IMG/VR virus record: IMGVR_UViG_3300035684_000001
Location: 64,001-128,000 of that record
Source: a virus
DNA: 64,000 bases
Direction: 5' to 3' (one strand)
In this document: positions 1-64,000 of the stretch, piece after piece
Layout: each line of letters begins with the position of its first letter
How positions within the stretch are numbered: position 1 is the first letter of the stretch
Made by a program: the position numbers and the translations under genes
The notes under the pieces: model-generated
Told to the model about the DNA's origin: nothing
The model's database searches: none
The model's input: the letters and a program-made list of their open reading frames with translations, nothing else

Positions 1-3000
1 CGCTATCAGTTTTAGCGTCGTGGATAAAGGCTATTTCTTTGGCAGGAATGCCCAGCGCAATTAAAATATCGCGCAGGGAAGTGTACGCTTCAAAGATTTT
101 GCCGTCTTTGGGTGTTGAGAAATCGCAAAAAATAGCTTGTGTTGCTTTTGCTGCGGTTCCCATTTTCCAAATACGGTATACGTTGAGGGCGCAAGTATTT
201 ATTTTGTTAAAAATAAAGTCCTTGCCATCCTTCCACCGCAGCCGGATGTCGATACCGAAGGCGGCGCGGGCATCCGTGTAAACCTTTAGAGCATTGTCCT
301 CGTCAGGTGTTACTAACCTCTTCTGAATGTAATGCAGTCGTTCAATCAGGTAGTTCATGTAAGCTGCCTGTTCGGTCGATGCCGGACATTCAACAGGGAT
401 TATTTCGTGGTTGGGCGCTGGTAGAGCCAGCATTTTGGCTGATTGTACATCTACGAACGATCGCCACAGCGACATGAATACTTGTAAATTCACGATACCG
501 CTGCACCGAGTTCGAGTTTTGTACCCAGTAGGAGTCTGTTCGGCGCTCGTCGTCAGATTGAAGAAAGTTGACAAACACGAATCGAAGGATTCAATGCCTG
601 CTTTCTTCAGCATGGACGGCGCTAGATAGCGCATCATTGTCCAAGACTCGACCAGCGTGTTCGATACTGGTGTTCCTGTGGCAAAGACGACTTTCTTTTT
701 CGTAGATAGCATCCACTGAACTTTCATATAGCAGTCAAAACTGCGAGACGTAAGTGTCCCGCCGTTCTTTCTGCTGTAGAAAGACGTGTTTGGTAGACCT
801 GCTACGTTGGTTTGCCTCGTGTGATAAGGCAAGTTCTTAAAGGCGTGAGCTTCATCTATAAATAAAGCGTCAATCCCAGTTTGTTCGAGGTAGATTACCC
901 CGTCTCCGTTTTGGTTGGCTGCTTCAATAGCTGCTGCAATCTTGGATTCGATCCTTTCTTTTGCTTTTGCAACTTGTTTGATCGATTTTTTGTCGCCACT
1001 TTCTATTGTTTCTAGTAAAAATTGATTGGCTATTTCTAGCTCTCTTTCTAGAAAAACAAGAGTTGATTCTGGCGACAGAGATATACCTGTCTTGAATTGA
1101 GTATGCGTGATTATCACGCAATCCCAATCTCCCATAGCTATTTCCGTACAAAACCGTTTGCGGTTGTCCGGCGACAGCGATTCTTGGGTTGACACTTTCA
1201 ATTTGGCAAATGGATACAACCGTCGAAACTCTGCTTCTATTCCTGAAATCGTAGAATTAAGAACCACGATCATGGGTTTATTTGCGAGTCCTAATCGACG
1301 TAACTCCATAGCGCTGGCGACCATTGCGGCGGTTTTGCCTGCTCCGACGGAGTGACTGTATAAAACAGATTCTTCTTGGAGCGTTCGCCAGATGGCGTTT
1401 TTCTGGTGCGATCGCCAGATAAAATCTGGATTAGCATCAGCGAGTGTTAATACTTCGCCTCGGTATTTGCGATCTACAAAGCAGTTAAACTGCTCGTTAT
1501 AGAGTCGCGTAATATGTTCGGCGCGATCAACATCGAGGTAAAGCCATTCTGCAAATTTTTGTTTGATTTCTTGCATTTTGGCTCTGGCATTTTCCGTTTC
1601 TTGTACGTTGACAACTGCTTTTTTGTCAACTATGTCTTTGATAACGGGGTCTTTTTGACTTAATCCCATTTCCAACAACGTTAAGAAATCAGCTTTTGGA
1701 GTACCCCATTGCTGCTTGTTTGCAGCGCTTCGGTCGATTGAGTAATAGGGTGTGATTCTATAGTAGTCGATCGGGTGCGGGATGTATGTGATTTCTACAG
1801 GTGCATCCATCAAATGAGATGCAAATTGCCCGTAGTAATGGGCTGGAACCCAAGTTGAGCCGAACAGAACTTGGTAATAGATCGAAATATCCGGTTCGCA
1901 CTTGGATGCTCCAATGCGGGTTGCAACTTCCGCTCTGGTTTCGGTACTGGCTTTTGGCAGAAAATATAGAGGTTGAATTAATTCCAGCGCTTCTATGTTT
2001 TTGAAATTGCCAGCCAACTGGGCGATCGCCAGTTTTTCTCGAACGTTGCCGCTGAGATACTCCTCAGCAGACACCCAGGTTGAGGTATTTGTGTCGAAGA
2101 AAGCTGACGAACTTTTTTCCAGTTCGTCGATTACCCCTTCGCCGCGCAGTTTGATTAGAAAATCGGTATCGATCGCCCCAAATTGATTTAGGGATAGAAT
2201 GATCGCGTCTTCGATTGAATCTGCGGACTCAGGAGTTATTTGCGGTGAAGCTGTACGCTTTGTGAATATGTCAGCTTTCGAGAAATGCTGTGTGCTTTTT
2301 AACAGATCTTTGAAGCTGTAGCCACACTGTTGTGTTGGAACCTCCAGCGCCATTAATAAATAGTATCGGGGGTCGCTACAGCAAATTTTGATGTTTGACG
2401 GGCTATTGAGATAGCCGTATTTTTTGATCCAGCGGTCGTAGGAATCGTTGAGATCCTTTCGACCTTCGATCAATCGATCTTTGTCTTGACCTTGTTGAGC
2501 CTTCAGAAGTTTTTCCAAATCTCCCCACAGCTTGAGCATGGAGTCAATTTTTTCAACTTCCTTGACTACTTCAAAGGCTTTAAATTCTCTTTTCTGCCAC
2601 AGTTTCTGGTTTTTCCAAAAAAAGTGATTGTGGGGGATGCAAGTGACCTCTGGGTCTGCCATTACAATTGTTTGAGTTTTTGCGGGTTCGTACTGCACGT
2701 CAAACTCTTTGAAGCAGCGGACTATTTCTTGCGACAAGTCGCGATCGTCACCTTTGAGGGCTATGCGTCCTCCGTATAATTCACACTCAGCAGATTCGCC
2801 GAGCATCATTGACGGATTGAACAAATAGTACCCGTTTAGAGGTAAATGCCTTACCTTTCCTAGGCTTTTTACATCACCTAGTTTGTCAAAAATTTCTTTA
2901 ATCCATTCGTTGTTTTTAGACTTGAGATGATCGGGCAGGAGGTGTGCAAATGTTTTTGCAAAAGGATCTCCCTTTACGATCGTCTGGATTACTGGTGATA

Positions 3001-3790
3001 CAGTCCAAACCTTATTTATACAAGGCTCTTTTTTGAACACCAAAATATCGGTTGTTATTTCCGTGTTCTCCTCCAGAAAAGTCGTATTTGGTAGGCGGAT
3101 TGCGCCTACTAATTCGACCGAATTACTGAGAAGTTCGCGGAAACCATTGCCACGGGCATCTAGAGTGCCTGACGTAGTTATCAGGACTATGAATCCGCCT
3201 GGGCGTACTAAATCCACTGACCTGTTAATAAAGTAGTTGTGGATATGTAAGTTCCCGATCTTGACATCTCCGAATGGGATGTTGCCGATCGCCAGATCGA
3301 ACAATCCCTCGCAATTAAAATCTTGAAATTTTTCGTTCACTATTTTTGCCTGCGGGTGAATCGCGTGGGCGATCGCTGCGGGAATGATATCCCGCTCTAT
3401 TCCAATCCAATCTATATCTAGATCGGGCGGAGCGCATTCAATAAACCGCCCAATACCGCACCCCGGCTCAAGGGCGTTAATTTTACCTCTCAAGCCGAGT
3501 GCGACTAATCCGTCCCACATGGCTTTTACCACGGGGAACGAAGTGTAATGGGCGTTAAACGTGGAAGCTTGCGCCTCTGCGTATTCTTTTTTTGTGAGCA
3601 ACGTTTGGAGTTCGTTGCGAATGTCTTGTCGCCATCCACATTTGGATGTATCAAAGACATCGGCGATCGCGCCCCAACCCGTAAATCTTGCAAGGATTGC
3701 TCTTTCTTCTTGCGAAGGGAGTTTTCCGCACAGAGATTTTAGGACTTGCACTGCTTTGAGGTTTGCACGTCCGATTGCTTCGTTATTCAT
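1..3790 (-). CDS. DarB-like N6-adenine DNA methyltransferase / SNF2 helicase fusion (3' end runs off the window start)
   Basis: Absent from the ORF track because it has no stop in the window. Hand translation from ATG 3790 gives MNNEAIGRANLKAVQVL..ARFTGWG..NAHYT..LEPGCGIG (SAM motif I)..GNIPFG (motif IV). In the same frame are HSVGAGKT (Walker A, ~1331-1354), FIDEAHAFKNL (~835-865) and ATGTPVSNTLVESWTMMRYL (~625-685). Over 1,260 codons. Confidence 0.88.
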   Translation of the reverse strand, partial: MNNEAIGRANLKAVQVLKSLCGKLPSQEERAILARFTGWGAIADVFDTSKCGWRQDIRNELQTLLTKKEYAEAQASTFNAHYTSFPVVKAMWDGLVALGLRGKINALEPGCGIGRFIECAPPDLDIDWIGIERDIIPAAIAHAIHPQAKIVNEKFQDFNCEGLFDLAIGNIPFGDVKIGNLHIHNYFINRSVDLVRPGGFIVLITTSGTLDARGNGFRELLSNSVELVGAIRLPNTTFLEENTEITTDILVFKKEPCINKVWTVSPVIQTIVKGDPFAKTFAHLLPDHLKSKNNEWIKEIFDKLGDVKSLGKVRHLPLNGYYLFNPSMMLGESAECELYGGRIALKGDDRDLSQEIVRCFKEFDVQYEPAKTQTIVMADPEVTCIPHNHFFWKNQKLWQKREFKAFEVVKEVEKIDSMLKLWGDLEKLLKAQQGQDKDRLIEGRKDLNDSYDRWIKKYGYLNSPSNIKICCSDPRYYLLMALEVPTQQCGYSFKDLLKSTQHFSKADIFTKRTASPQITPESADSIEDAIILSLNQFGAIDTDFLIKLRGEGVIDELEKSSSAFFDTNTSTWVSAEEYLSGNVREKLAIAQLAGNFKNIEALELIQPLYFLPKASTETRAEVATRIGASKCEPDISIYYQVLFGSTWVPAHYYGQFASHLMDAPVEITYIPHPIDYYRITPYYSIDRSAANKQQWGTPKADFLTLLEMGLSQKDPVIKDIVDKKAVVNVQETENARAKMQEIKQKFAEWLYLDVDRAEHITRLYNEQFNCFVDRKYRGEVLTLADANPDFIWRSHQKNAIWRTLQEESVLYSHSVGAGKTAAMVASAMELRRLGLANKPMIVVLNSTISGIEAEFRRLYPFAKLKVSTQESLSPDNRKRFCTEIAMGDWDCVIITHTQFKTGISLSPESTLVFLERELEIANQFLLETIESGDKKSIKQVAKAKERIESKIAAAIEAANQNGDGVIYLEQTGIDALFIDEAHAFKNLPYHTRQTNVAGLPNTSFYSRKNGGTLTSRSFDCYMKVQWMLSTKKKVVFATGTPVSNTLVESWTMMRYLAPSMLKKAGIESFDSCLSTFFNLTTSAEQTPTGYKTRTRCSGIVNLQVFMSLWRSFVDVQSAKMLALPAPNHEIIPVECPASTEQAAYMNYLIERLHYIQKRLVTPDEDNALKVYTDARAAFGIDIRLRWKDGKDFIFNKINTCALNVYRIWKMGTAAKATQAIFCDFSTPKDGKIFEAYTSLRDILIALGIPAKEIAFIHDAKTDS

Positions 3791-3889
3791 TGTTTTTAAT
3801 TGTTTTGAATGCTTACCTCTTTATTATACTCTATTCAAATAATATATGATATAATACGAGAGTAAATACAAAAACAAAGGTATTTTATC

Positions 3890-5305
3890 ATGTCAATTAA
3901 AGAATTTTCCAATCTTCTTTCTGACTCTTCTACCGCCATTTGCGCGTACAACGGTTTTGGCAAACTCAAGATTTTTGCTGAAATTGGCGGCGTGACCCAG
4001 ATGATCAAAGTTTCAGTTGAAGGAGGAGAAATCCCTTGGACTGGAAAAGCAAGCAAAGAAATTCTTCAACATATTAACCAAACGATCGGTCAAGACAGTG
4101 GATTTATCTTCGATCCGGCTACAAAAATAGTAGCAACCGATCGCGAATTGTTCCACTCGTCAGACGAGTATGAAATTCCGAGTTTTAATCCAAGCGACAA
4201 TCAAATTGCAGAAATCGCTACTATTTCACTTATTACTAAAGAATGGAAAGCGATCAACAAGTTTGGCGCGATCGCCAAAGACAAGGTGTATATCCAGGTA
4301 ACTGGAAATATCTTATCTTTGTCGGCGATCGCGCCTGATGGATTGATTGTAACTAATACGGTCGTCCTAGAGCATCCGCTCCAGGACGAGCAATCGATAA
4401 ATTTCAGTATTCCCAAACAAGCGCTGTTCGAGGCAGAATCTGTTGCTATCGAAATAGGCTCAGAAAAGATACTGATCGAGTCGAGCGATCGCGCATCTAT
4501 ATGGACGATCAACATCGATGAGCCAGCCTTTTTTCCGGGGTTGATTCCAGAAGGCGCGATCGAAATAGGTATCGCCCGCAAAGACTTAAACCCCCTTCTC
4601 GAAAAAGGAGGCTCTGTAAAAATTAACATCAATAAAAACAAAGGTGTTCAATTAAAAAGTACCAATGGAAAGCAGATGTTAATTCAAATAGACATCTCTT
4701 GCGACGTACCCCCGCGCACGTCATTTCAAGTGATGGCGGAAGCCCTTGAATCAGCTATCAAGCTAATTGGGACGGCGAAGCTCATAACGCTAGCCCTCCC
4801 TGTAGGGCTGCAATATATAGCAGTTTCCGCTGCTGCCGTGCGATGTCTGTTGCCAACAGTCGTCGGTGCAGCTAAAGCGCTGACAGCAAAAGAAGTGATT
4901 TCCCCAGATCCAATAGTTTTGGAATCCGAGTCTACCACTGTCGAAGTGGACGGATCTGAAGTCACGATGACGGTTTCAACCGTCGAACAACTCGACATTT
5001 CGCAGTCTGTCGAACCGAATTCTCGACAGGAGGCGATCAACAAACTTGAAGAAGCAACCGAATCAGCTAAAGAAGCGATCGCTCGCATCCCTGTTGGTTC
5101 GGAACTAGAGGTCGCTAAACAGGCGATCAAGGAAACTCTCGTAGAGCAAGCACAAGCTGTGCTTGACGCAGAAAAGAAAGGATGTCCCTTCTCGAAAGAG
5201 GATGTCAAAAAAATAACAAATGCGATCGTTCGCGCGATCGCCCGGATTGAGTCAATACGCCTCAATATGCAAACCTGGGAACTCCAGGTAACGTTCCGAA
5301 GGTAA
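3890..5305 (+). CDS. Divergent DNA polymerase III beta-clamp-like protein with C-terminal helical extension
   Basis: Motifs fall in DnaN order: DEYEIPSF, LSLSAIAPDG (ATDG-like), FSIPKQALFE, DEPAFFPGLIP (G.FPDY..VIP-like), FQVMAEALESAI, CLLPTV. About 140 extra acidic/helical residues follow. Confidence 0.5.
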   Translation: MSIKEFSNLLSDSSTAICAYNGFGKLKIFAEIGGVTQMIKVSVEGGEIPWTGKASKEILQHINQTIGQDSGFIFDPATKIVATDRELFHSSDEYEIPSFNPSDNQIAEIATISLITKEWKAINKFGAIAKDKVYIQVTGNILSLSAIAPDGLIVTNTVVLEHPLQDEQSINFSIPKQALFEAESVAIEIGSEKILIESSDRASIWTINIDEPAFFPGLIPEGAIEIGIARKDLNPLLEKGGSVKININKNKGVQLKSTNGKQMLIQIDISCDVPPRTSFQVMAEALESAIKLIGTAKLITLALPVGLQYIAVSAAAVRCLLPTVVGAAKALTAKEVISPDPIVLESESTTVEVDGSEVTMTVSTVEQLDISQSVEPNSRQEAINKLEEATESAKEAIARIPVGSELEVAKQAIKETLVEQAQAVLDAEKKGCPFSKEDVKKITNAIVRAIARIESIRLNMQTWELQVTFRR

Positions 5306-5596: not shown

Positions 5597-6916
5597 TTAA
5601 GGATGTGGTACAAGCTTACCGTTTTTAACGATAGCTCGCATACTGTCATTTTCTGTTTCCGCAAATCCCATTAACTTATAGAAAGTAACTCGCTTTTCTT
5701 TATAACCATCTTCTGCGTGTGGATGACAATCGAAAATTGTTCCATCTGGCGATTTTTTGACATCTTCTTTAAGAAGCGCCCGCAATTTATACATAATAGC
5801 TTTACTCTCTTCAGGTTTCAATGGCTTTTTGTCAAATGAATCGTTAACTTTAAAATCAATAGTTTTCATTAAAAATTCAATACCTTCCTCGGCTTCTTCT
5901 GTACTTGAATTTACAGTAAACGCTACCTTATTTTTTCCAACCTTAAATGTAGATATTGTACTATTTATTTCAATGTCACCTAGTGCAGATTTTAAGATTT
6001 TTTTCTGTTTTACCTGCTTAAAATTTTCTACTAATGATTTTGTTAAAGTTTTTGCTTCTTTCTTTAACCCTTCAGCAACAATTTTTTTTGCTCCCAATTC
6101 TGCTATTTTTTTAGCTGCTAATCTAATAACTTGGTCAGATGCAATTCCTGCTACTAGCAGAACACCAACCTTGAGGACTGGATTGTCAACTTTGGCTTTG
6201 TCTAACCCTTTTTCTGCACCTTTATAAACTGCTTCTCCTAAAACAGCACTAGCAATTGCGTGGTTTAACGATTCTTTCAACAATAGTCCTATCGTAACAC
6301 CTATACCAACATTGATTGCTATGTTCGTAACGAGTGGAATAGATGCTCTAATAGACTTACCAACTAATTCCTGTTGCTGCGGTGGCGTGTATTTTTCGGG
6401 GTTTGCCAAAGCTTCTGTGTAGAGTTGATATTTGGCAACAGCAAATTCCATTTTTTCTGCAAACGAGCTATTTGCGAGTGGCTCAAGTCCATCAGATTTA
6501 CGAATAGCTTGGGCAAGCGGGTCTTTGTCTCCCCCATAATCTTTTGCCAATTTATCCGCAGATTGTTGAACAAAGCCATCTATTTTTTTCTCTAATTCCG
6601 GAGTTTTTTCTATAGCTTTTGATGTAGCCTTGATTATTTCAGCTATCCCCATTCCTGCAGAAAGTCCGACTCTTTCTCTGAATCCTGGGTCTGTAAGGGA
6701 TAGTTTAATCACATCTTTTGTGATGCCGACTGTTTTAACTGTGGAATCAATTACATCCTTTGCCTCTTTAGTTACTTTAACTGTACCACCACCAAATCTA
6801 CCATTTTCACCTCGGTTTACCCAGTCAGGGTCTTTGTCCCAACCTTCAGCTTTGATCGTCAATTGAATTCCGAGTAGCTGTAATTGGGCTTTTGCTACCG
6901 ATCCTCTTAAATCCAT
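5597..6916 (-). CDS. Putative virion-associated protein with N-terminal R..NGRF motif and C-terminal GNAT-like domain
   Basis: ORF 5597..6934, likely ATG at 6916. Contains DWVNRGENGRFGGG, a hydrophobic middle, and C-terminal RVTFYKLMGF (FY..xGF, GNAT-like). Confidence 0.5.
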   Translation of the reverse strand: MDLRGSVAKAQLQLLGIQLTIKAEGWDKDPDWVNRGENGRFGGGTVKVTKEAKDVIDSTVKTVGITKDVIKLSLTDPGFRERVGLSAGMGIAEIIKATSKAIEKTPELEKKIDGFVQQSADKLAKDYGGDKDPLAQAIRKSDGLEPLANSSFAEKMEFAVAKYQLYTEALANPEKYTPPQQQELVGKSIRASIPLVTNIAINVGIGVTIGLLLKESLNHAIASAVLGEAVYKGAEKGLDKAKVDNPVLKVGVLLVAGIASDQVIRLAAKKIAELGAKKIVAEGLKKEAKTLTKSLVENFKQVKQKKILKSALGDIEINSTISTFKVGKNKVAFTVNSSTEEAEEGIEFLMKTIDFKVNDSFDKKPLKPEESKAIMYKLRALLKEDVKKSPDGTIFDCHPHAEDGYKEKRVTFYKLMGFAETENDSMRAIVKNGKLVPHP

Positions 6917-6920
6917 ATTT

Positions 6921-9900
6921 TTGGTACAATTCAATGAAACTAATATATCACGCTACGCAGGCCACCCCACCCAATGGGGCGGCTTTTGTTGTTTGGGGGG
7001 AATTTTGGAAGAGAGTCTGGATCGGTACGGCTTAGTCGGTCAGTTTAATTTCTTAGTTGCAGACGGCAGTTTTTCTTCCATGAAATCTGTTGTCAAACAC
7101 CTGAGCAACATGGAGAAGGCTGTTGCAGACGCTTCCAAATCCGTAGACAGCAACGGGCTAGCAGGTCAATTTAAATCTGCAGCCCGATCGCTCGACACCT
7201 CCTCCGGCAACATGGCAAAGAGCTTGCAGCCTTTAAAAGCTGAGTTTAGGGTGTTAAAAGCTACTGCGGCAAATATTGATTTTGGAGATGTGCTGGACGA
7301 TCGCCAGTTCAAAAAAGCTACAACTGCTGTCAACACTTACGTTAAAAATCTCAAAGAATTAAGAAAGCAAGTTCAGGGCGAAACGGCAGCGGAGCGGGAG
7401 TTTACGGAAGTCCTCAAACGGCAGCAGCGCGTTATTAAGGACAAACTTGCTTTGCACGATGCTGAGCGCAAGGCTGCGTTTTTCTCTCAAAGAAAGGGTG
7501 AGTTTGGGGCGCTGCAACAAGTTGGGAATATAGCACTCAATCCGCTGAAGCAAGCCGGAAAAGAAGCCATTCAAGTTTTTGCTGGTTTTGACGACAAGAT
7601 GAGCGCGGTGGCAGCTATCTCGCGATCAACGGGCAAGGATTTAGATCGGTTGCGGGGTAAGGCTAAGTTATTGGGGGCGACGACTCGATTTACCGCAGGA
7701 GAGGCTGCGGATGCCGAAAAATACTTGGCGGCAGCGGGCTTTAACGCTCAACAGATTTTTGCAGGCGTTCCTGCAACTTTGGATTTAGCTTCGGCGGGAC
7801 AACTGGGATTGGCGGAATCGGCTGACATCGCTTCCAACGTGCTCAGCGGGATGCGGATGGGCGTTAGCGATTTAGGTCACATTACCGATGTTATGGCGTT
7901 GTCGGCTGCTAGCGCAAATACCAACATTCAGCAGTTGGGTGTAGCGATGAGCTACGCTGCTCCCAATGCTGCACTGTTTGGTGCGGGAATAGAAGAAACC
8001 TCTGCTTTAATTGGGGTGATGTCAAATGCGGGGATTCAGTCCGACAAGGCAGGAACGGCTGCAAGAGGAGCTTTTTTAAAGTTGGCCGCACCTACGGTCA
8101 GAGGTCGAATGGCTTTAATTCAATATGGAATTTCGCTGACCGACACCAGCGGTAAAATGCGGAATATCGTTGATGTGATGCAGGATATCGGTACAAACCT
8201 GCAATTAGATCCAGCTTCTTTAGACTCGATAATTCAAGCTGGCGATGACGTAGAAAAACTGGGACAACTTGCCCAGTCAAAGCAAATTTCTGCATTAAAA
8301 GATATTTTTGGCACAACTGGAATTTCGGGGGCATCGGCCGCAATCAGCCAAATGCAAGAATTTACTCGTCTGAGTTTGGCGGGTAGGGGCAGCTCTTTTG
8401 CTATTGAAGACTACGAAAAATTATTTAAATCTCAGGGTATTGATAAATTAGCCACAGATAAAGATGTTTTCGCTTCGCTGCTGCGAGAAGCGGGCAGCTA
8501 TCAAGATGCGCTACAAAAATTAGATGCTGCTACGATCGCCTTAGTTAAATCCAATGAATATTTAGGAAATCTTTCGAGCACCCAGCTAAGTCAATTGTCA
8601 GGATATTTCCAAATACCCGAAGGTGAGAATTTATTTGATGCGATTTTGGCGACTGCTCCCGACGCGAATGCGGCAGTCAGCAAGCTAACCTCAGCGATGG
8701 GCGAATTAGGGATTGAATTTAAGGGAAAATCCGGCGCAGCGAAAACGATGGCGCAGGTGATGGAAAACAACCTGGCCGGTTCTTTCCGATCGCTCGGTTC
8801 TGCGTTTGAAGCAGTTCAGGTCAATTTGATCGAACCGATCGCCCCAATCGTGCGGGCGATCTCCGACACATTAACTAAGTTGCTGCTGGCGATCGCCAAC
8901 CTTCCTTCCCCAATTCGAGGATTGATTGCCGGAGTTGGGGTGCTTACCGCAGGGTTTGCAGCGGTATCGGTTGCAGTCGGAACAGTTGGTGTAGTGCTGT
9001 TTGGATTTTCGCAAGCTGCGGCAACCGCGACTGCTGCGGGAATTGCACTGCAAGCTAGCGTGATTCCGCTGACCGGATTTTTCCCGGCGGCGATGGCGGC
9101 TTTTGAGGGTACGGCGTCCAACCCGTTCAAGACTGCCTCGTTTGCTGCGGAAGCTTTTTCGGACACGATCGCCTCTACGTCCAAAGATGTCAACTTGGGA
9201 TTGAACGGGATTGCTCGAAATATTGCGGTAGTTTCGAGGTCGCTGATTTCGATGTCGGTATCGTTTGCTCTGTCTCCAATGGGAATCGCGATTGCAAGCT
9301 TCCTTGCACTTAATGCTATTTTGCAACAAATTAACCCAGAAATTAATTTGCTGGGTACTATTTTCAGCGCCGTCAGTTCCATCGCTGGTTTTGCAGTTGG
9401 AATAATTCAAGGATTTGGCGAAGCGCTGCTCGCTGCACTAGATGTTCCAACATCTGTTGCAGGTTCGATGTTGACCGCTCCGTTTGCAGCAGTCAGCAGC
9501 GCTATAGAATATGCAACTGTGGCTTTTGAAACTTGGCGGAAATCCGGGCGGGCGATCGGGGTCGATATTTTTAAATTTGTAGCGCAGCCGTTTCAGCTTG
9601 CAGGCAGGGCGATCGAGACTTCATGGAACTTCACACTGAACTATATCAAGGGCTTGCTGACGCCTTTTGCTGGCTTCGTAGCTCGGATTGGCAAATTGCT
9701 GCAAGGGGGTCTAGCTGAGGCATCGCCGGGTCCGACCTACATGATTCGGGAAAAGTGGGATTACACGATCGCCTTTTTGGAAAAGCTGTTCACCAGAATT
9801 AGAAACGCTGCAGGTTTAGTTAATCGGGCTTTTTTAGGTATTGGAAGTGTAACAGAATCCTCGAAGATGGAAGCTCAGCAACAAATATTGCAAGGGGCGA

Positions 9901-38427: not shown

Positions 38428-38428
38428 T

Positions 38429-51063: not shown

Positions 51064-54000
51064 TTACCTACTAGAAGAATTTGTTGATGATTCTAAGACG
51101 ATAAGTCTAGAAAGTATCGAACCTATCGATAGCTGAATCTCGCTTATTATTGAAAGATTTACGCCATCAACAAAAACACCATCCTCGTTTATTTCGATTT
51201 CATGCAACGTTTCAGGTTCCATTCCTTCTTTAGGGTCAGACAAAGATCGGAAAATAACTTTTTTCCCCTGAATATACACAACTTCTGGCGTACATAAAAC
51301 TTCATTACAAAAAGAACCATCTTCATTAAACGATTGGATATGTGCATTGCGACCTTGAAGCGCAAACCTTGCCGCCTGTTTATCCCAGACAATCGGTTCT
51401 TCTGGTTTATCATCATCATCGTCATTGTCGTCAATCTCAACCGGGGGCTTATTGTGATCGCCAGAAAAGAATGAACTTAGCGACAGCAACCCGCTCTTGG
51501 GATCGAGCAAGACTCCCACACCTTTGGAACCGTCCTCAGAGCCGTTGCGGAACACAGTTGTACCGATTGACGACAAGGATGTTCCAGATCCGCCCATGCT
51601 CAGCATTCCGCCCAGACCTTTAGAAAGTAATTTCTTAGGACTAATGCTCAGAGAAACCTTGCCCCCAGGCCCGAGTAACTTTGTCACCTTCCCTAACATC
51701 TGAAGCCCCGATTTGCCGTCCATACCCAAAAGTTTCAATCCTTGTTCAGCCATCGCCATTTGAGAACCACCGGGTCCTAACAGTTTCACAAAATCCATGC
51801 CGATTTGCATCGCCTTTTTCCCGTCAGGACCCAACAGCTCAGCAACTTTCTCGGCAAGCTTCAATTTAGAAACTCCATCTGCTCCTACCAACTGAGAGTA
51901 AGTTTTTACCATTTCCAGCAGTCCTTTACCCGACGGACCGAGCATTTTAGCGAGTTCTTGCGTAACAACCGTCATTGCCCCCTCCTTACCGCCAGCCCAA
52001 ACAGTTGCCGATTTTTCATCGGCAAAGATATTTGTGCGGATCAACTCCCCGATCGCATCCTCGACTTGCGGACCCAGTAATTCCCCTATTTTTTCGTTGA
52101 CGTAGCTGATTGCAGCTTTCTCACCCGCACCTTTCATGCCGATGTCATTTTCCCAAGCGAACATTTCTGTCCTGACTTTTTTGCCATCTTTCTCAATGGC
52201 TGGGCCAAGGATTCCCGATTTTACTGGATCGACAAAGCTACAAGCACCATCCCCGCCAGATTTCATTGCCACAGTTCCATTTTTTTCAGCACACATGGAA
52301 CTTCTTAGTTTAGATTTTTTTGGTTTTTCTAACTCTTTTTCCTTTGCTTCACCTCCTTTTTCCATTGACTTTGCAACAAAAGGAGTGAACTTAAATCCAG
52401 CAAAATCGCTAGGCGGCTCATAATCATCGTCGTCCTGAGTTGCATCGTTGCGAATTGGAGACAGCATTTCTGCACGATTTGCCCCAACAACTGTCATAGC
52501 TCCCTCGCCCGGAGCAAACATAGCTGTTTCTTCGGATGCTGCCTGCATCCCCGATCGAGTCTTTTCTCCATTGATTTCAATCGCCGGTCCGTGCATTCCA
52601 CTTTTGGTTTCATCCGCTGAAAAGCAAGCTCCGTCACCGCCAGATTTACCGCCTACCAATCCTTTCCGATCGGCAAACAGACAAGTCCTCAATTTTTTCT
52701 TGGCTTCTGCATCTGCAAATTTGCCCGTTTTACCTTCTTCCCGATCGCCCCCCTTCTTAAATTTGACCGACTTGAGGTCAAATTCAAACCCATCATAGTC
52801 GCTGGCGGGAGGATCGTCTTGTTCATCTTTAAACTCGCCTTCTTCTCTTTCTGGACCAAGAACTTCTGCCCGATCGCGCGCAACGTAAGATATTGCACCG
52901 TCAGCAGCCTCGCTTCCTGCTTCCTGAGCGAATACAAAACTACCAGTCCGCAGTTTTTTACCGTCTAATTCAATTTCCGGACCGAAAGTCTCGGCTTTTT
53001 CTAGGTGGACGATCGATCCCGCGCCGCGTCCTCCCGATAAAGTTCCAGCCCCGCCGTAACCGTCCGCGAATAAGGAAGTTCGTACCATCCGGTCTTTTTC
53101 TTCTAGATCGTCGTACTTGGGCCGCTTTTTAGCTTCTTCCTGTTCCCCACCTTGTTTGCGACGCTGCCCTTTAGAAAATATTTTGTAACCACCTTTTTTA
53201 CCTTTACCTGGTTTATCTTCCTCGCGTTCTGGTAATTCCCCATCTTTGCGTTCCGGTCCTAGAATCTCTGCCATGCGTCGCTCTACGCGAACGCCGCCGC
53301 CTTTATCCCCTGCGGTCATACCTCCGCCAGCTTTGTCGGCAAACATAGACACTCGAAGGTTGGGAGCAAATTCCGGACCCATTATCTGAGCACCTTCTTT
53401 GCCAATGCGGGCGATCGCCCCTTTCTCACCGCGATTTGACTCCATCTGCACGTAAGTTTCGCGGGCAGTAATCCTAGCCCCTTTGGGTTCGTCGGGTATT
53501 GCGCGAAGGAGTTTGCTGTAGTCGTCGATTGCCGACTCTAGAATTGGAATCAATTTTTGCGCCAGTTCTTTGCAAGATTTAGGCAATACTTTTTCTACAG
53601 CATTTTGCAGGATATCATCGGAACTGTTGGTGATTGCAAAATGCTTGGCAACTTCTTTGAGCGGTTCAACCAGTATGTCTTTGTTAAAAAGTACGTCATC
53701 TCTAAGCAATAGAAATGCCAAAGCTTCTAACGGTGCAATCCCTTTGATACTTTTCTGCCCCTTCAATACTGCACTTAAAGTTTTTTCGGTTTTTTCAATT
53801 AATCCTTGAGTTACTTCCCCAAATAGTATTGATAGTGGAGATTCCCCCGCCACCAATTTATCCACGTTTTTTTTATCTTCTTCGATTTGTTTCGCTTCTC
53901 GATCTTTGTCGGCTAGCTGTTCTTTTGTCAAAAATTTAGCAGCTTTTAAATCTTGATTGCTGAACACCCGAGAAACTGCTTGTTCCGTCAAGGTTTCGTC

Positions 54001-55553: not shown

Positions 55554-56042
55554 CTAGCTATTTAGTTCGTCGATGTCATCGCGGTTAAATTGCAGCCCAC
55601 GTCGAAATTCCTCTTGAGTCCAATCTCGAACATGGGGATTTACTGTTCCGAATTCCTGCATTTGTGATAACCACAGACTGATCCGAGCAAAAAAGCGAGC
55701 ATCTGACATAGAATAAGCAAACGCTACAGATGGGTGAACAAAGATAGATCCTTCATCACCTCTAACGTAGTCTATCAAAGCTTTTGAGCGACTACTCATT
55801 TCTGAGTACCCGCTCTTAACGGCTAATTCTGTGTCAGCATTAGCGACTGGCAGACCCGTTAAAAGTGAAAGCTCTTCTAACACATCTTTTGCAAACTGAG
55901 TTCTAGTCCAATTGTTGAACCGCTTTCCGATCGCCTTACTGATGTCTCGAACAGACACATACCCATCCTTGCCTCGAATTTCAATTTTTTGACCGTTGTA
56001 CTCAGGAAATTGATCGAACCATGATACCATTGCTTTAGACAT
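55554..56042 (-). CDS. KilA-N domain protein
   Basis: IEIRGKDGYVSVRDISKAIGKRFNNWTRT...GSIFVHPSVAFAYS. Confidence 0.85.
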   Translation of the reverse strand: MSKAMVSWFDQFPEYNGQKIEIRGKDGYVSVRDISKAIGKRFNNWTRTQFAKDVLEELSLLTGLPVANADTELAVKSGYSEMSSRSKALIDYVRGDEGSIFVHPSVAFAYSMSDARFFARISLWLSQMQEFGTVNPHVRDWTQEEFRRGLQFNRDDIDELNS

Positions 56043-56996: not shown

Positions 56997-58019
56997 TTAG
57001 CGTCTGCTCTTAGATTTTGCTGCTGCTTTGTCCATTTCTTTCTTCCGATCCTCTCTCAGTTTGGATAATTTCTTTATCCAAAACTCCCTAGAGCTGGGAG
57101 TCATATCAAGGACATCGACTTGAGGAGAATCTTCGTCATGAAAAGCAAATTTTAATTCATTAAAGTATTTCTCGACAGAGCCAATTTTTTGATTCGGTCG
57201 CGGTGGAGTGAAAGTTGAAAAGTAAAAGTCGGCATCAACGGCTGCTATCCACTCTCCCGCACAGCTCGGACAATCCATTGGAATAGTTTGCTCAGGACCG
57301 AACCATACCTCCCCGATCGCCCGCTGAATTTTATTGTAATCTCGATAATGCAACTTATCGAGCATTTGATCGGGCATGGAGATTAAGGCATCTGCTGCCC
57401 GCAACTTAACTTTGGAAAATGCGTCGCTCGCTTCCGAGGAAACTTCTTTAAATCTTGGGGGTTCCCAGTAACACTTGTCGGTATCATCGACTGGACGGGT
57501 TAGCTGTACGTGAAACAGTGGAGGGGCAAGAAGTGCGGCACATCCTCGGAGTACCACGGACGATAAATCGTGAGTATATATGTCGCCAGACTCTTTGTGG
57601 TTGATCCTGTGACCGCAGTAAGGACAGGTACAGGGAATCGCAATGTCCGGCCCCGCCCCCTTGCACCTAATGTTTAACAACAAACTCAAAATGTCGGCCA
57701 AGTACATCCCCTGAAACAAGCGCGGGGGAGAAGTATTTAGCTTGTTAGCTACTTCGGCAAGCGGCCATCCGTCGATCGTCTCCACAATTTGCGGCAAGAA
57801 CTGTGAATAAATCCGAACTAGGCGATCGGGAGTTTCTCTGTTTTCATCCTCAAGCCGTCCGAGCAACACGTCGTGATGGCCTATGTACGGTTTGAGGGTG
57901 TACTCGCGGAGGCGATCGCCGTTCAAAAAAATACCCAGCGGAAGGTTCTGTCCCCACTGATACAGCTCCCGATCTTGAACAGACAGACTGCTATAATCAA
58001 ATGATTTAATCACTCTCAA
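56997..58019 (-). CDS. T4 gp26/gp51-like baseplate-hub / tape-measure assembly chaperone
   Basis: DILSLLLNIRCKGAG..CTCPYCG and DCPSC (gp26-like), C-terminal VLDMTPSSREFWIKKL (gp51-like). Confidence 0.65.
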   Translation of the reverse strand: MRVIKSFDYSSLSVQDRELYQWGQNLPLGIFLNGDRLREYTLKPYIGHHDVLLGRLEDENRETPDRLVRIYSQFLPQIVETIDGWPLAEVANKLNTSPPRLFQGMYLADILSLLLNIRCKGAGPDIAIPCTCPYCGHRINHKESGDIYTHDLSSVVLRGCAALLAPPLFHVQLTRPVDDTDKCYWEPPRFKEVSSEASDAFSKVKLRAADALISMPDQMLDKLHYRDYNKIQRAIGEVWFGPEQTIPMDCPSCAGEWIAAVDADFYFSTFTPPRPNQKIGSVEKYFNELKFAFHDEDSPQVDVLDMTPSSREFWIKKLSKLREDRKKEMDKAAAKSKSRR

Positions 58020-58027: not shown

Positions 58028-58891
58028 ATGAACTTAATTACCTTTGAGTATATCGCCAATCAGGGCTTGCCAAATGAATGGCGAATAGAAAAATGTCAAT
58101 TTGGTCAACTTAATTTAATAGTAGGTAAAAATGCGAGCGGTAAGTCTATGCTTTTAAAAGCAATTGCCAAGCTAGCAGATCTACTTAGAGGAGTCGAAAT
58201 TACTGAAACAGAAAATCACGAATGGCGTGTATTGTTTGATATTGGCAAACCAGACTACTACATAGAATACTCACTTAAAATACAAGAAGGTTTTGTACAC
58301 AAAGAACAGGTACTCTTATGCAGAGACGCAAGCAAGTATATTTTGCTGGTTTTACTAGATCGAAACCAGTCAGGCGAAAGTACCGTTTATACGGAAAGGC
58401 TACAAAAAGACGTTAAATTTCAAGCTCACAAAACAAAAACCGTAATAGCACAACAAATAGCGCAATATCCAAATTATATTCAATATCCATTTTTAAAATT
58501 GTTTTTTCTATGGTCTGATCGAATAAATTTTTATCAATATAGGGAAGTCTTGAATACAAATTTAAGTCTCAATATTTGTGGCAATCCCGCGCTAGATATA
58601 TCTAAAACGGTTGTTGTCGATGATGTTGGATGCAAACTAGACTATGAATTTTCACCCATTCTTGCTAAGAATTTAGTGGAATATAGCAATCGATCGCCTG
58701 TTCAATTTATCCTAGCTACGAACAATCAATTTGTGGTAAACAGCGTACCGCTAGACTGCTTGTCGGTCATCGAACAATCCCTTAGCGTCATCAAAGTACA
58801 CAACATTTTTAACTCGCGGGACAAGTTTGAAAAGTTTAAATTTATAGGACTCAACAACTTTGACTTATTTACCAGCGAGTTTTTGTTGTAA
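58028..58891 (+). CDS. ABC/AAA-type ATPase, probably internally deleted
   Basis: NLIVGKNASGKS (Walker A), VVVDD (Walker B-like), QFILATN; no ABC signature segment visible. Confidence 0.65.
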   Translation: MNLITFEYIANQGLPNEWRIEKCQFGQLNLIVGKNASGKSMLLKAIAKLADLLRGVEITETENHEWRVLFDIGKPDYYIEYSLKIQEGFVHKEQVLLCRDASKYILLVLLDRNQSGESTVYTERLQKDVKFQAHKTKTVIAQQIAQYPNYIQYPFLKLFFLWSDRINFYQYREVLNTNLSLNICGNPALDISKTVVVDDVGCKLDYEFSPILAKNLVEYSNRSPVQFILATNNQFVVNSVPLDCLSVIEQSLSVIKVHNIFNSRDKFEKFKFIGLNNFDLFTSEFLL

Positions 58892-58946
58892 CTGGCGATC
58901 ACCGATCTCAATTCACCAAAAATACAACAAAAACTAAATTGATAGA

Positions 58947-59264
58947 TTATTTTTTATATCTGCGCTGAATCGCTGGGAAATTAGCAACTTCTTCAGCCGA
59001 TTCAACATCAAGAATTTCACGAATACGAACTCCGTCTATTTCACATTCCACTTTCAATGTAAAAACACCTTCTTTTTTCACAAGTATTAATGACGAAAAT
59101 TGCAAAAATTTATTAGAATAATCAAAGCCTAACCCTTTTGTTTCAAGACTCCATTCAGTCTGTATAGAGTTTTCTGTTGAAGATCTTACCTCAGCCGTAA
59201 AAACAATTTCATTTAACCATGCTATTTGTTTTTCCTGTGGCAGAATTTGTACTTTAACTAGCAT
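58947..59264 (-). CDS. Hypothetical protein
   Basis: 105-aa beta-rich ATG ORF. Confidence 0.55.
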   Translation of the reverse strand: MLVKVQILPQEKQIAWLNEIVFTAEVRSSTENSIQTEWSLETKGLGFDYSNKFLQFSSLILVKKEGVFTLKVECEIDGVRIREILDVESAEEVANFPAIQRRYKK

Positions 59265-59320
59265 TGATGAACACCTCTTAAGTTTTTAGAATTTTTTGAT
59301 ATATTCGATCGCCCTCAACT

Positions 59321-59707
59321 TTAAAGTGAGCAAACGCGACAGAACGTTAAATCGGTTACACCTAAAACGATCGGATCGGGAGTTGTCAATATCCACACAG
59401 TACCGCTATTCATACTACCACCCAAAACAAGAAATGTCGTACCTTGCGCGATCCTAGTATCAGCGTCAGCATTTTCAGCTCGAACCCACGATTCTTGATC
59501 TGCTAAATACAAACCGTTTTCAGTTCGATCTGTTTGCGCCGTAAGTAGTACGCGATCGCCAGTACATAGTGTTGTATCTTGAATAGTTAACAATCCACCC
59601 GTTGTAATGTCAATATTTTCAACAGCAGCGATTGTGCAAACATAATTGGTATGAACGTAATCTCTAGAGCTAGATATAGCCTCCCATTCTCGCGAAGAAA
59701 GAACAAA
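59321..59707 (-). CDS. Stand-alone tail-fibre module (third copy), start codon unclear
   Basis: GDRVLLTAQTDRTENGLY..WVRA..FLVLGG..GTVW..PIVLG..LTF is homologous to the module in 36982 and 38429. The open frame extends 38 codons upstream of TTG 59593. Confidence 0.65.
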   Translation of the reverse strand, partial: FVLSSREWEAISSSRDYVHTNYVCTIAAVENIDITTGGLLTIQDTTLCTGDRVLLTAQTDRTENGLYLADQESWVRAENADADTRIAQGTTFLVLGGSMNSGTVWILTTPDPIVLGVTDLTFCRVCSL

Positions 59708-59926
59708 TTAAGGAAGATTAGCTATATTTAAAATCTTCCATTCTGTTGAGCCCACTCCTTCTAAAGCTCGCGCTAAATTAAAAGCTGCGCCATCAAATTT
59801 GGTGAATTTCAACAGCGGGCGATCGGTAGTGGTGTCAATTGCGACGTGATGTAGGTGAGACACAACTTTTTGTGCAACATCCAATGAATCAAACTGGACT
59901 ACCTTCTCAAAAATTTCAGCTACCAT
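59708..59926 (-). CDS. Hypothetical protein
   Basis: 72-aa ORF overlapping the rep stop codon. Confidence 0.5.
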   Translation of the reverse strand: MVAEIFEKVVQFDSLDVAQKVVSHLHHVAIDTTTDRPLLKFTKFDGAAFNLARALEGVGSTEWKILNIANLP

Positions 59927-61503
59927 ATTTCATCCTCGTTTGCAGTTTCACGCTGAAGCAAATAATCAGCTAGACCATTGTCCCTATCGCTAGCATTTTC
60001 CGTTTCCATTGCCGTATCGACAGCCGCAACCTTTGCAGAATTTTGCTCTATTGACAGTAAAGATGCAGCTTCCCGCAAGCTAGCTTCTCGAATACGCTGC
60101 CTTGGAGATACTGCGGTTTTGCACTTGCTTAAAATTTCTTTGATCTTAGCAAAAGCAGCTTTTTTTTCATCAACGTCTACCTGTTCCAGCTCTGTCGATT
60201 CCTCTGTTGGCACAACTTCTTCGGTTTCTTCTATCTCTTCCCCGATCGTCGCTTCAATCAATTTTTCCGGTTCTGGTGCAACCAAAGCACTGATTGGGAC
60301 GATCGCCGTAGCATAAGTTGGCAGGCAGTTGGCAATCGCCTGTTCAGGAGATATTCCTAGCGCCTCTTGCTTGGCAGCTTCTTCGCCAGCACGGATTAAC
60401 TGTTGGCGAGCAGCATCGGCGACAGCGCGAACTACGGGGGCTTTAGCCAAACTTCTCGCAGCATTTGCAGCAGCTTCCGTACCAGTAGCACCTACTTTCC
60501 CTCGCTGGTCTTGGGTGATCGCCTCCCCAACAATCCGTTCCGGTACGCCCCGCAATCTGTATCCAAAGGGAACAAGGCGGCTGCCGAGTTCTTCGCCTGA
60601 AAGATATTCCTCCCACAACAACTGGGCGATCGGGTCTGCATCGCCCGATTTTAGTTCGCGGATTGTAGCCTTGGTATACCCCTCCGGGGAATTAATGTTG
60701 ATGCACTGCTGAGCGTATATCAGTAGCTTGTAGAAAAAATCCTGTTGTTGAGTCTGGTTGACCGAACTGAGCTTTGCGGAACTTTCGTCCAATGCTTGAA
60801 CTTCAGTTGTAACGACAAGCTCTGGTTTATTTTTAACCGTGTCAAAAATCTTTTCGGCATTTGTCTTTGTCGTTAGTCGATCCTCTTGGTCAATTATATT
60901 TTCAAAGTCTTCCCCACCCCCTTTTTTGTTTATTGCTGGCTTCGGTTTTACCGATCGCCCTACTGGAGTGGGTTTGTTTTGATAAAGTCTTTCTGAATAG
61001 GTATTTTGATATGATTTGTCACCATTCGACAAATCGAGGTGATCAGATTTGACAGATCGATGTGTTCTGTTTTGACAAATGCAGAGCGGCGCACGTTTCA
61101 GTAGCTCAGCTAGCTTGGTGTAATTTACCGTGTAATATTTACACTGATCCCAGAATTGGGCTCGAAGTTTTTCGGAAATGATGAGCCCAGTTTCTTCGAG
61201 ATAATTAAAGATTCTGCGGAGCTTGGCAAAAGTAGCCCAAGTAAAATTCGACAGCCAATCTATCAGCTTCCCGTGTTCCCGACTTTTTTCTAGTTTGCGC
61301 TGGCTCGTGCAGGCGATCGGATTGCGGATGTACTTTGCGCCGTCGGGGGCGATCGTCCCTGCCATATCTGGGTTTTCGACGCACCACTGAATTTTAGAAA
61401 AGACTGTTGCGGCCTCTACGCCTACTATCTCAGCCACGTCTGGCGAGAAGAAGGAAAGTTTTTCTGTTTCTCGAACGACGTTTTGCGAATTATGTGATAT
61501 CAT
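59920..61503 (-). CDS. Putative replication initiator (phage/plasmid Rep with N-terminal winged HTH)
   Basis: FSPDVAEIVGVEAATVFSKIQW...LRRIFNYLEETGLII...KYYTVNY is the replisome-organiser-type N-terminus; low-complexity linker and helical C-terminus follow. Confidence 0.7.
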   Translation of the reverse strand: MISHNSQNVVRETEKLSFFSPDVAEIVGVEAATVFSKIQWCVENPDMAGTIAPDGAKYIRNPIACTSQRKLEKSREHGKLIDWLSNFTWATFAKLRRIFNYLEETGLIISEKLRAQFWDQCKYYTVNYTKLAELLKRAPLCICQNRTHRSVKSDHLDLSNGDKSYQNTYSERLYQNKPTPVGRSVKPKPAINKKGGGEDFENIIDQEDRLTTKTNAEKIFDTVKNKPELVVTTEVQALDESSAKLSSVNQTQQQDFFYKLLIYAQQCININSPEGYTKATIRELKSGDADPIAQLLWEEYLSGEELGSRLVPFGYRLRGVPERIVGEAITQDQRGKVGATGTEAAANAARSLAKAPVVRAVADAARQQLIRAGEEAAKQEALGISPEQAIANCLPTYATAIVPISALVAPEPEKLIEATIGEEIEETEEVVPTEESTELEQVDVDEKKAAFAKIKEILSKCKTAVSPRQRIREASLREAASLLSIEQNSAKVAAVDTAMETENASDRDNGLADYLLQRETANEDEIW

Positions 61504-61915
61504 GGTGGTTATACACAAAATTTTATCTTCAAGGAAGTACGACTGTCCAGGTCGCGCTTCCTATTTTTTTGAGTATAATCGATGATCGCCATTTGCGCTA
61601 GCCTTGGACGCAAAAAAACAATAACCCGCGATAACTTTCGATTAAGGGCGGGCGATCGCGTACAATTACTTTTAACACTATATTTTATTGCAATTTTGTG
61701 AGCGATAAATTAAAACTGCTTTGTGGTACAAACGAAGTTACTGAAAATAACCATAGATAATTAACGCTGTTTTGCTAAAGTGCTGGTGATCGGTGAGACA
61801 AACTTCTCTACCGGGCAATCACAATTTTCCACAATCTTTACCCCATCGCCCGCGTGATAAGAGCTTAGGCTTTTTGTTGCGGTTGTTTGAACGGTGGAGT
61901 GATCAATGGTAATAT

Positions 61916-63475: not shown

Positions 63476-63874
63476 TTAATTTCCATCTGTTTTAACTAGA
63501 CTATACTTGTACTGCAACACGACGCCGCGACTGTAAATTTCATCAACCAGTTCCATTTGATAATAAATGCTTCCTACCAGCAATCTAGAATTGGGCAAAA
63601 CATCTTTATTCGTAAACCCCTCGATCGCCAGTATATAGGCAAAAATTTTTTCTGTCGTTACCCAGCCTGCGTCTGTTGGAATTCTTGACTGTTTCCGCTC
63701 GATATGACCCTGAACAGATCGCCTAGTAAATCCAACTTGTGCTTTTACCGCGTATTCAGGATTTGCTGGTTCCACAATTCCTTTTTGACATAGAAACAGT
63801 GGAGTCCCCTGCTCTAGAGAACATTGTCTAAATGCCTCCATGTCAAACCAAGGCGAGTTCATGTCTAGAACCAT
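63476..63874 (-). CDS. Putative head-closure / head-tail adaptor protein
   Basis: 132-aa beta-rich ORF ending GVVLQYKYSL; overlaps the upstream connector-like ORF. Confidence 0.4.
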   Translation of the reverse strand: MVLDMNSPWFDMEAFRQCSLEQGTPLFLCQKGIVEPANPEYAVKAQVGFTRRSVQGHIERKQSRIPTDAGWVTTEKIFAYILAIEGFTNKDVLPNSRLLVGSIYYQMELVDEIYSRGVVLQYKYSLVKTDGN

Positions 63875-64000
63875 AGTTTTTTCCGGTAGCGTTCCAGCGG
63901 CGACATCAAATCGTCGAGGTTGGTTGAGGATCGCTGGTTTTTGGCTTCTTTCCCCACCGCGAAAGTTTGAGAAATTCCGCCTTGCAGCCCAACGTTTATT
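63865..64000 (-). CDS. 3' end of a head-tail-connector-like gene (partial)
   Basis: Frame reads INVGLQGGISQTFAVGKEAKNQRSSTNLDDLMSPLERYRKKLWF*; the L..YR ending is connector-like. Confidence 0.35.
   Translation of the reverse strand, partial: INVGLQGGISQTFAVGKEAKNQRSSTNLDDLMSPLERYRKKLWF

Follow-up and report, generated by a model that had tools for sequence, protein, structure and literature searches.

The window analysed here, a 64,000-nucleotide (nt) stretch of DNA comprising bases 64,001–128,000 of the IMG/VR record IMGVR_UViG_3300035684_000001 (G000), carries a giant phage tape measure gene among other virion genes, and it raises the question of what kind of virus this gene belongs to, which host it infects and how it lives. 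An earlier note on the window had proposed a jumbo, contractile-tailed prophage or phage-plasmid of a cyanobacterium. The window is part of a single 188,553-bp record, the sole contig of its assembly (42.9% G+C; no N). We consider it likely that the whole contig represents the complete genome, about 189 kb on a circular map, of an uncultivated contractile-tailed phage infecting Microcoleaceae (filamentous cyanobacteria of the Microcoleus type), and that the window is its central third. The comparison draws on the sister record IMGVR_UViG_3300036939_000082 (G001), two more distant IMG/VR relatives (G002 and G003), and a Microcoleaceae assembly with fragments of a distant relative (G052).

The tape measure gene and the predicted tail

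The gene in question is, in window coordinates:

6921–25880, + strand, tape measure, 6,319 amino acids (aa), one open frame, with matches to PHROG tape-measure families

The N-terminal half of this single frame matched phrog_1533 at 1e-75 together with 12 other tape-measure PHROGs, and five more were matched in the C-terminal half, which bears out the tape measure named in the earlier note. The corresponding frame in G001 has 6,339 aa, with 87.8% aa identity to that of G000, and those of the more distant relatives have 6,043 aa (G002), 3,686 aa (G003) and about 1,300 aa (G052). A sheath of about 1,000 aa is kept in G001, G002, G003 and G052. Tape-measure length among the relatives spans about five-fold, with the sheath constant at about 1,000 aa.

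Tape measures follow a rule of about 1.5 Å of tail length per residue, so that 6,319 aa would correspond to a tail of about 0.95 µm (range 0.9–1 µm). At this length it is the longest tape measure gene that we found reported, compared with 5,002 aa in Thermus phage P23-45. We tentatively propose, as a possibility that may well fail, that this lineage has a contractile tail of about 1 µm, that its tape measure grew from about 1,300 through 3,686 to more than 6,300 aa with the sheath constant at about 1,000 aa, and that such a tail is encoded by a 189-kb genome without a polymerase of its own; a plausible reason would be access to cells that lie in Microcoleus bundles under a thick common sheath. 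In this mechanism, contraction of the tail sheath would push the tube across the host's thick extracellular sheath and its wall. If true, such a tail would surpass any tail measured so far, and to our knowledge it would lie far beyond any contractile tail known. Electron microscopy of the tail would be a direct test of the tape-measure rule and of sheath contraction at the micrometre scale. Two points weigh against the proposal: gene length is the sole basis of the estimate of 0.9–1 µm, and the 5,002-aa tape measure of P23-45 is partly an RNA polymerase and not a ruler (PMC10770324).

Thermus phages P23-45 and P74-26 likewise have a giant tape measure in a single open reading frame (ORF) that implies a micrometre-scale tail. 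Their tails, nearly 1 µm long, are the longest known, that of P74-26 having been called the longest of any known virus, and their tape measure has 5,002 aa (PMC10034513, PMC10770324). They differ in being non-contractile siphoviruses of a thermophile, in which the N-terminus of the tape measure is the virion RNA polymerase. Their genomes have a size of about 83 kb. The present tape measure is about 26% longer than that of P23-45 and is accompanied by a sheath, a tube and a myovirus-type baseplate; the two are likened by gene length. The lineage pairs a contractile tail gene set with the longest tape measure gene found reported.

A probably complete contractile-tailed phage genome

The head genes and the core tail genes lie outside the window. 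They are, in contig coordinates:

34,489–36,510, large terminase, GpA-type (phrog_675 6e-23, PF05876)
150,041–151,468, portal (phrog_2662 2e-20)
153,276–154,331, capsid protein, 351 aa (AlphaFold2, AF2, model matching HK97-fold capsids)
129,856–132,858, sheath, 1,000 aa (phrog_23 1e-16; PDB sheaths 9ezm_A 2e-8 and 8bky_A 2e-6)
directly downstream of the sheath, tail tube, 188 aa (60%-identical homologues carry PF06841, T4 gp19)
31,511–32,686, gp6/J-like baseplate wedge (phrog_6 9e-14)
136,457–138,367, P2 gpI-like baseplate protein (Tail_P2_I above cut-off)
58,925–61,666, beta-helix/TIG tailspike-like protein

The AlphaFold model of the 351-aa protein (pLDDT 84.6, from a 29-sequence alignment) gave 370 PDB matches at E ≤ 1e-3 in Foldseek, SPO1 at 1.7e-11 among them, and by this predicted structure it is an HK97-fold capsid protein. 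Head assembly and filling are the work of this protein together with the terminase and the portal, and the tail genes encode the sheath, the gp19-type tube, the gp6/J-like and gpI-like baseplate proteins, a spike with a gp5 OB domain, a GH19 + M23 wall hydrolase, S74 fibres and the tape measure. Both strands carry virion genes, in at least 10 blocks that spread across about 150 kb, with replication, defence, antirestriction, nucleotide-metabolism and signalling genes between them. A contractile-tailed (myovirus) body plan with dispersed virion genes is well supported by these predicted functions. The large cyanophage with a contractile tail that the earlier note had read from the window is thereby upheld, as is its picture of virion genes on both strands with non-structural genes between: sheath, tube, baseplate, terminase, portal and capsid all lie on the same replicon, and the inspection of the full contig that it recommended found terminase, capsid and sheath present.

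G001 is 188,942 bp long, was assembled independently from another sample, and has a terminase 96% identical to that of G000. In whole-genome blastn the two genomes are collinear over 133 kb at about 70–90% nt identity, in reverse orientation and circularly permuted. The ends of G001 map to G000 positions 38,593 and 41,849, and those of G000 map inside G001: there the final 2.5 kb of G000 and its initial few hundred bases keep their order and are about 1 kb apart at most. Because G001 is collinear yet circularly permuted, with the G000 ends adjacent inside it, the G000 map appears closed and essentially complete. The circularity for which the earlier note had suggested looking is thus supported by comparison with the sister genome; the ParA/ParB partition genes that it had also suggested were not found.

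A simple gene call gave 235 ORFs in G000 at 89% coding density, mostly small, on both strands and in a phage-like arrangement, with phage genes up to both ends and no host flank. No tRNA was found in the window, and no rRNA, tRNA or housekeeping block in the gene list. Of the 235 genes, 167 are shared with G001 at a median of 78% aa identity. Every virion gene keeps its full length in G000 and G001 alike; the aa identities run from 66 to 96%, apart from 41.5% for the fibre gene at window positions 35856–36974. As judged from these alignments, pseudogenisation is absent from the virion gene set, and the decay of structural genes that the earlier note had held up as a counter-indication is not seen.

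Contigs that bear proteins of this phage family measure 179.9, 182.6, 193.9 and 195.0 kb, so the family occupies a size class of 180–195 kb, just below the 200-kb threshold. As 'jumbo' denotes a genome of more than 200 kb, G000, at 188,553 bp, falls short of the name that the earlier note had given it.

Several points weigh against completeness. The G000 contig has no terminal overlap, so that a single sister genome provides the comparison on which circularity depends; IMG/VR classes G000 as 'linear', with a CheckV completeness of 67%; and it labels both G001 and G003 'provirus'.

Host assignment

The host family was approached through CRISPR spacers and through genes shared with cyanobacteria. 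When 35 kb of the window was searched against 144 genomes of the Microcoleaceae, short matches came up, of which six fall exactly within spacers, in six genomes and in arrays of 25–42 repeats; these spacers match the window at 89–100% identity. Four target the tape measure gene (89–97%). One, from an array in assembly G051, matches window positions 40051–40087 in an 816-aa ORF (89%), and one is a perfect 38/38 match at 45000–45037, in the small ORF 44966–45277 (− strand), from a 41-repeat array in G074:C377.

The window also carries a TnpB whose closest relatives, in many Microcoleus genomes, reach 89% aa identity, and by this resemblance the TnpB element is of host origin. For the core of a ThyA-like gene (window 42786–43423), chromosomal counterparts with 77–80% nt identity occur in about 40 of these 144 Microcoleaceae genomes, and weaker ones (67–74%) in more, which suggests that the core was exchanged recently with the host. 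The CRISPR spacers, the TnpB and the ThyA core together identify Microcoleaceae as the host family, whose CRISPR systems have acquired spacers against the lineage.

In G000 the TnpB element (window 49332–51170) adjoins the spike gene. The copy in G001, 83% identical (positions 7146–8665 of G001 160001–180000), lies about 57 kb off the collinear diagonal; the copies being at different sites, the element has moved since G000 and G001 diverged.

HIP1 content

The 8-mer HIP1 (GCGATCGC) occurs 33 times in the window, compared with 0.91 ± 1.12 in dinucleotide-preserving shuffles, none of 100 of which reached 33; in the contig as a whole, 112 copies stand against an expectation of 1.5. HIP1 sites throughout the window, as the earlier note had described them, are therefore real and far above background. 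Its proposed comparison with the host put sampled Microcoleus DNA (139 kb) at 0.40/kb, G000 at 0.59/kb and G001 at 0.67/kb. The cyanophage comparators, in HIP1 copies per kb, were:

A-4L, 0
Ma-LMM01, 0.02
PaV-LD, 0.54
Nostoc myophage A-1(L), isolated by lytic propagation, 0.54
Aphanizomenon siphovirus CL131, isolated by lytic propagation, 1.80

The earlier note had drawn a temperate habit from the assumption that lytic cyanophages generally have little HIP1. This premise failed: only A-4L and Ma-LMM01 are poor in HIP1, and since A-1(L) and CL131 were propagated lytically yet are as HIP1-rich as G000, HIP1 is no evidence of lysogeny here. We found no paper in the literature relating HIP1 to cyanophage lifestyle. 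How much HIP1 a genome has appears to depend on the phage and host in question: four phages of filamentous cyanobacteria have high levels, A-4L and Ma-LMM01 next to none. Richness in HIP1 and CGATCG may mirror host-like oligonucleotide usage. This corrects a heuristic, in that HIP1 richness does not tell temperate from lytic cyanophages.

The commonest 8-mers of the contig are GGCGATCG (204 copies) and CGATCGCC (191), both above canonical HIP1 (112), and its favoured 10-mers have the form (C/G)GGGCGATCG(G/C). CGATCG stands at 2.8/kb in G000, above sampled host DNA. GATC is absent from the 41-kb Anabaena phage A-4L, a complete avoidance, compared with 6.7/kb in G000. Three methyltransferases are encoded by the phage, two of which are C5-methyltransferases.

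Lifestyle and alternative explanations

Six-frame profile searches of G000 and G001, in which control genomes were positive, found no tyrosine integrase (PF00589), serine recombinase (PF00239), rve transposase (PF00665), protelomerase (PF16684), ParB (PF02195) or ParA (PF13614). Tubulin (PF00091), searched for in G000 only, was not found there, and a ParM profile was uninformative, the control being silent too. No tyrosine integrase was found in G002 or G003. Megablast of 24 kb of the window returned no match among PLSDB plasmid and phage records. A terminase (TerL) profile run against 144 Microcoleaceae and 401 other cyanobacterial genomes (545 in all; the weaker hits G011 and G178 examined in part only) found no integrated multi-gene relative. 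The one real relative was G052, in contigs of 12–21 kb that are phage from end to end, with no host DNA.

Two further TerL hits were set aside as relatives. The chromosomal hit in G163 (E = 3e-243) shared no other virion gene in a 360-kb tblastn scan, and that in G011 was TerL alone, 27% identical. The G163 locus (G163:C1:3,900,695–3,902,722) lies in a complete 5.5-Mb cyanobacterial chromosome and encodes a TerL at 40% aa identity, and over 160 kb in each direction from it no further gene is shared; the hit probably belongs to an unrelated prophage whose packaging enzyme is related.

The region in which the G001 record ends also bears on integration. A defence island at contig positions 37,239–41,877 holds an AbiLi-like ATPase (7.5e-57) and an HTH + M78 protein, an RmrA-like RosmerTA antitoxin. 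A 3.25-kb stretch with the RmrA-like gene is found in G000 only; it is absent from G001, whose 'provirus' ends fall exactly there. The HTH + M78 protein had been considered as a CI/ImmR-type lysogeny regulator, and this assignment was dropped: PADLOC identifies it as RmrA of RosmerTA, and with this match beside the AbiLi-like ATPase we read the stretch as a defence island. A protein identical to the G001 terminase is recorded on a contig of 194,977 bp, by which only about 6 kb would have been trimmed from the G001 parent scaffold. We infer that the trimmed DNA is a host-like defence island and not chromosome; a scan of metagenome contigs with the G001 end gene found no relative.

How far these results decide the lifestyle depends on the rival explanations. 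A temperate phage of Microcoleus, kept as an integrated prophage or an extrachromosomal phage-plasmid whose long residence gave it host-level HIP1, is unlikely in our judgement, yet it draws on several observations. The 188 kb hold no DNA polymerase, which makes replication dependent on the host; three Rep/DnaD-like initiators are encoded; AbiLi-like (7.5e-57) and RmrA-like defence genes are present, with a DarB-like gene as in P1; an insertion sequence (IS) of host origin is resident, at different sites in G000 and G001; G001 and G003 carry the 'provirus' label; and fragments of a distant relative occur in one Microcoleaceae assembly. The missing polymerase, the initiators, the AbiL-/RosmerTA-like genes and the resident IS fit persistence and so weigh against a virulent life, as does the fact that profile searches miss novel recombinases and partition systems, and a real host junction may lie within the roughly 6 kb trimmed from the G001 parent. 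DnaD/Rep-like initiators also occur in virulent phages. Against temperate carriage stand the integration, protelomerase, partition and tubulin genes not found in the searches described, the G000 ends that join without a host flank, and the G001 parent that is only about 6 kb longer and ends at a defence island that provirus callers could plausibly trim. Moreover, no plasmid matched, none of the 545 cyanobacterial genomes held an integrated multi-gene relative (G163 sharing TerL alone), the G052 fragments are phage throughout, and HIP1 is equally high in the lytically propagated A-1(L) and CL131. The prophage, phage-plasmid and temperate parts of the earlier proposal accordingly found no support in integration or ParA/ParB genes, host flanks or plasmid matches. 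By our own estimate a non-lysogenic (virulent) life is somewhat favoured, and some form of non-integrating carriage is a lesser though real possibility.

Two other explanations deny a virus in the ordinary sense. That the DNA encodes a tailocin, a particle like an extracellular contractile injection system (eCIS) or a decaying prophage relic, instead of a replicating virus, might be suggested by virion genes that are scattered and not in one late operon, and by a window that by itself has no capsid or terminase gene. It has next to no probability, because capsid, portal and terminase on the same replicon already refute it and indicate a whole contractile-tailed phage; these genes are intact and conserved in the independently assembled G001, and CRISPR arrays of the host family target the genome, one of the spacers being a perfect match. 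Under the other explanation the contig would be an assembly chimera or a genomic island of a cyanobacterium mistaken for a virus, and the HIP1 sites and the kinase, TnpB and ThyA genes would be host DNA. A HIP1 density equal to or above that of sampled Microcoleus DNA (0.59 vs 0.40/kb) and several genes with close host homologues speak for it, but an independent assembly, made from another sample, has the same gene order throughout the 189 kb, phage hallmark genes span the entire contig, and no rRNA, tRNA or housekeeping block was seen, which leaves this explanation very improbable.

Relation to known phages

A tblastn search with TerL against 50,697 phage records, cyanophages included, gave no match, and with the portal it gave a single 25%-identical match, to a Faecalibacterium phage, and no cyanophage. 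A TerL peptide scan of genome contigs found none. On these comparisons the phage represents a new uncultivated lineage of Microcoleaceae myophages without a cultured relative, and the giant tape measure is its most remarkable feature. Very few viruses are known of Microcoleus, which forms toxic mats in rivers and crusts on desert soils. For this poorly sampled virosphere the genome, its sister and the distant relatives define a phage lineage.

My-WqHQDG and My-ElHQDG, too, are uncultivated phages from mat metagenomes, assigned to Microcoleus, with sheath and baseplate (bioRxiv 10.1101/2023.04.12.536658). By their descriptions they are set apart from the present genome: My-type genomes are about 239 kb long and encode DNA polymerase, primase and ribonucleotide reductase, whereas the present genome has 189 kb and no polymerase was found in it. 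Si-ElHQDG, described as a smaller integrated siphovirus prophage of 86 genes related to Phormidium phage MIS-PhV1A, is unlike the present genome (bioRxiv 10.1101/2023.04.12.536658).

Nostoc/Anabaena phage A-1(L) (KU234533) is likewise contractile, infects a filamentous host, is HIP1-rich (0.54/kb) and has baseplate genes apart from its sheath/tube block; it differs in its 68-kb genome, its own DNA polymerase and primase, and its ordinary tail. P1-type phage-plasmids resemble the present phage in that they are large myoviruses that have no integrase, rely on the host for replication and carry a DarB-like protein as well as accessory defence genes. They are defined by a plasmid replicon and ParA/ParB, whereas in the present genome ParA/ParB were not found and there was no PLSDB match. 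Microcystis phage Ma-LMM01 (AB231700) is likewise a large (162 kb) freshwater cyanomyovirus, with IS transposases and a putative thymidylate synthase of about 490 aa; it differs in being HIP1-poor (0.02/kb).

Other virion genes of the window

In window coordinates, the remaining virion genes and candidates are:

33782–35296, +, lysin (peptidoglycan hydrolase); Pfam GH19 muramidase-like and Peptidase_M23; phrog_181 endolysin 6.5e-30; 91% aa identity in G001
35856–36974, +, tail fibre/spike; C-terminal S74 intramolecular chaperone (Pfam Peptidase_S74); phrog_4636 tail spike 3e-62
36982–37860 and 38408–39391, +, fibre-/decoration-like paralogues, 292 and 327 aa, with small ORFs between; phrog_8745 tail fibre, phrog_2647 head decoration
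39506–41956, +, conserved 816-aa protein, candidate virion protein; 76% aa identity over its full length in G001
51064–55470, −, central spike, 1,468 aa; N-terminal gp5/VgrG OB domain (Pfam Phage_base_V above cut-off); phrog_430 baseplate hub/tail lysozyme; 91% aa identity over its full length in G001
56997–58019, −, candidate baseplate hub, 340 aa, weak evidence; T4_baseplate E = 0.0023 (sub-threshold); phrog_150 baseplate hub 6e-5; 85% aa identity in G001

The fibres and the spike of the earlier note are well founded in these matches, the former in the S74 chaperone, phrog_4636 and the two paralogues and the latter in the 1,468-aa protein with its OB domain. Its 'hub-lysin' is a lysin by its GH19 and M23 domains, and nothing shows a baseplate hub role. 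For the gene likened to gp26/51, at 56997–58019, the sub-threshold T4_baseplate match and phrog_150 lend weak support; a PDB sequence search gave no match for it or for the spike. No window ORF matched a neck or connector protein, family searches of ORF 5597–6934 gave no assignment, and the 816-aa protein had no match in Pfam, PHROGs, NCBIfam or PDB sequence searches. The fibre at 35856–36974 is the virion gene that diverges most between G000 and G001.

Non-structural genes

The non-structural genes of the window are:

2–3790, −, DarB-like antirestriction protein, N6-methyltransferase and DEAD/SNF2 helicase; the C-terminal 1,263 aa of a 1,758-aa protein whose gene runs on upstream of the window to contig 67,790
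3890–5305, +, candidate beta sliding clamp, divergent, 471 aa; ESM-Atlas structural neighbour
29779–33121, −, histidine kinase (673 aa) and two receiver-domain proteins (137 and 301 aa); Pfam HisKA, HATPase_c, Response_reg
42210–43757, +, ThyA-like fusion of an archaeal-type thymidylate synthase core and a DUF4346 pterin-binding domain; Pfam, NCBIfam
after the ThyA-like fusion, in a block ending at 44096, +, MazG-like gene
47132–47686, +, RNase AS/Rv2179c-like 3'-5' exoribonuclease; Pfam 1.4e-12, NCBIfam RNase_AS 1.5e-44
48420–49223, −, PAPS-reductase-fold protein, SspD-like; Pfam PAPS_reduct, PADLOC SspD 9.5e-14
49635–50840, −, TnpB of an IS200/605-type element; Pfam OrfB_IS605, Cas12f1-like_TNB
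55554–56042, −, KilA-N domain DNA-binding protein; Pfam KilA-N 2.2e-9
58028–58891, +, AAA_15/21 ATPase, AbiLi-like; Pfam, PADLOC AbiLi 3.9e-9
59920–61518, −, DnaD/Rep-like initiator; phrog_6493, phrog_11233; DnaD/replication-initiator PHROGs 9e-7

The Rep, ThyA, anti-defence and signalling genes of the earlier note are all recovered among them by these matches. Its beta-clamp is a lead only. The ESM-Atlas model of ORF 3890–5305 has a beta sliding clamp as its nearest structure (template modelling score 0.56/0.69 over 306 residues, within residues 1–326), and the sequence had no match in Pfam (the beta-clamp families included), NCBIfam or PDB sequence searches; on the model it is probably a divergent clamp, at the level of a lead.

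Profile searches for DNA polymerases of families A, B and C (PolA, PolB, PolIII-alpha) found none in the 188 kb of G000. Rep/DnaD-like initiators occur as three paralogues on the genome (the window gene, g081 and g231), with weak matches to phage 'replication initiation' PHROGs (1e-5 to 3e-9), and G000 also encodes a DnaB-like helicase. The host replisome would probably be recruited via the initiators, the helicase and the clamp-like protein. With the MazG-like gene next after the ThyA-like gene, nucleotide modification is possible.

The DarB-like protein carries Pfam Eco57I, ResIII, DEAD and SNF2 domains and is DrmD/MTase_II-like in PADLOC. In tblastn it matched 121 phage records, several of them annotated as 'DarB-like antirestriction', to which it has about 32% identity over 87% of its length.

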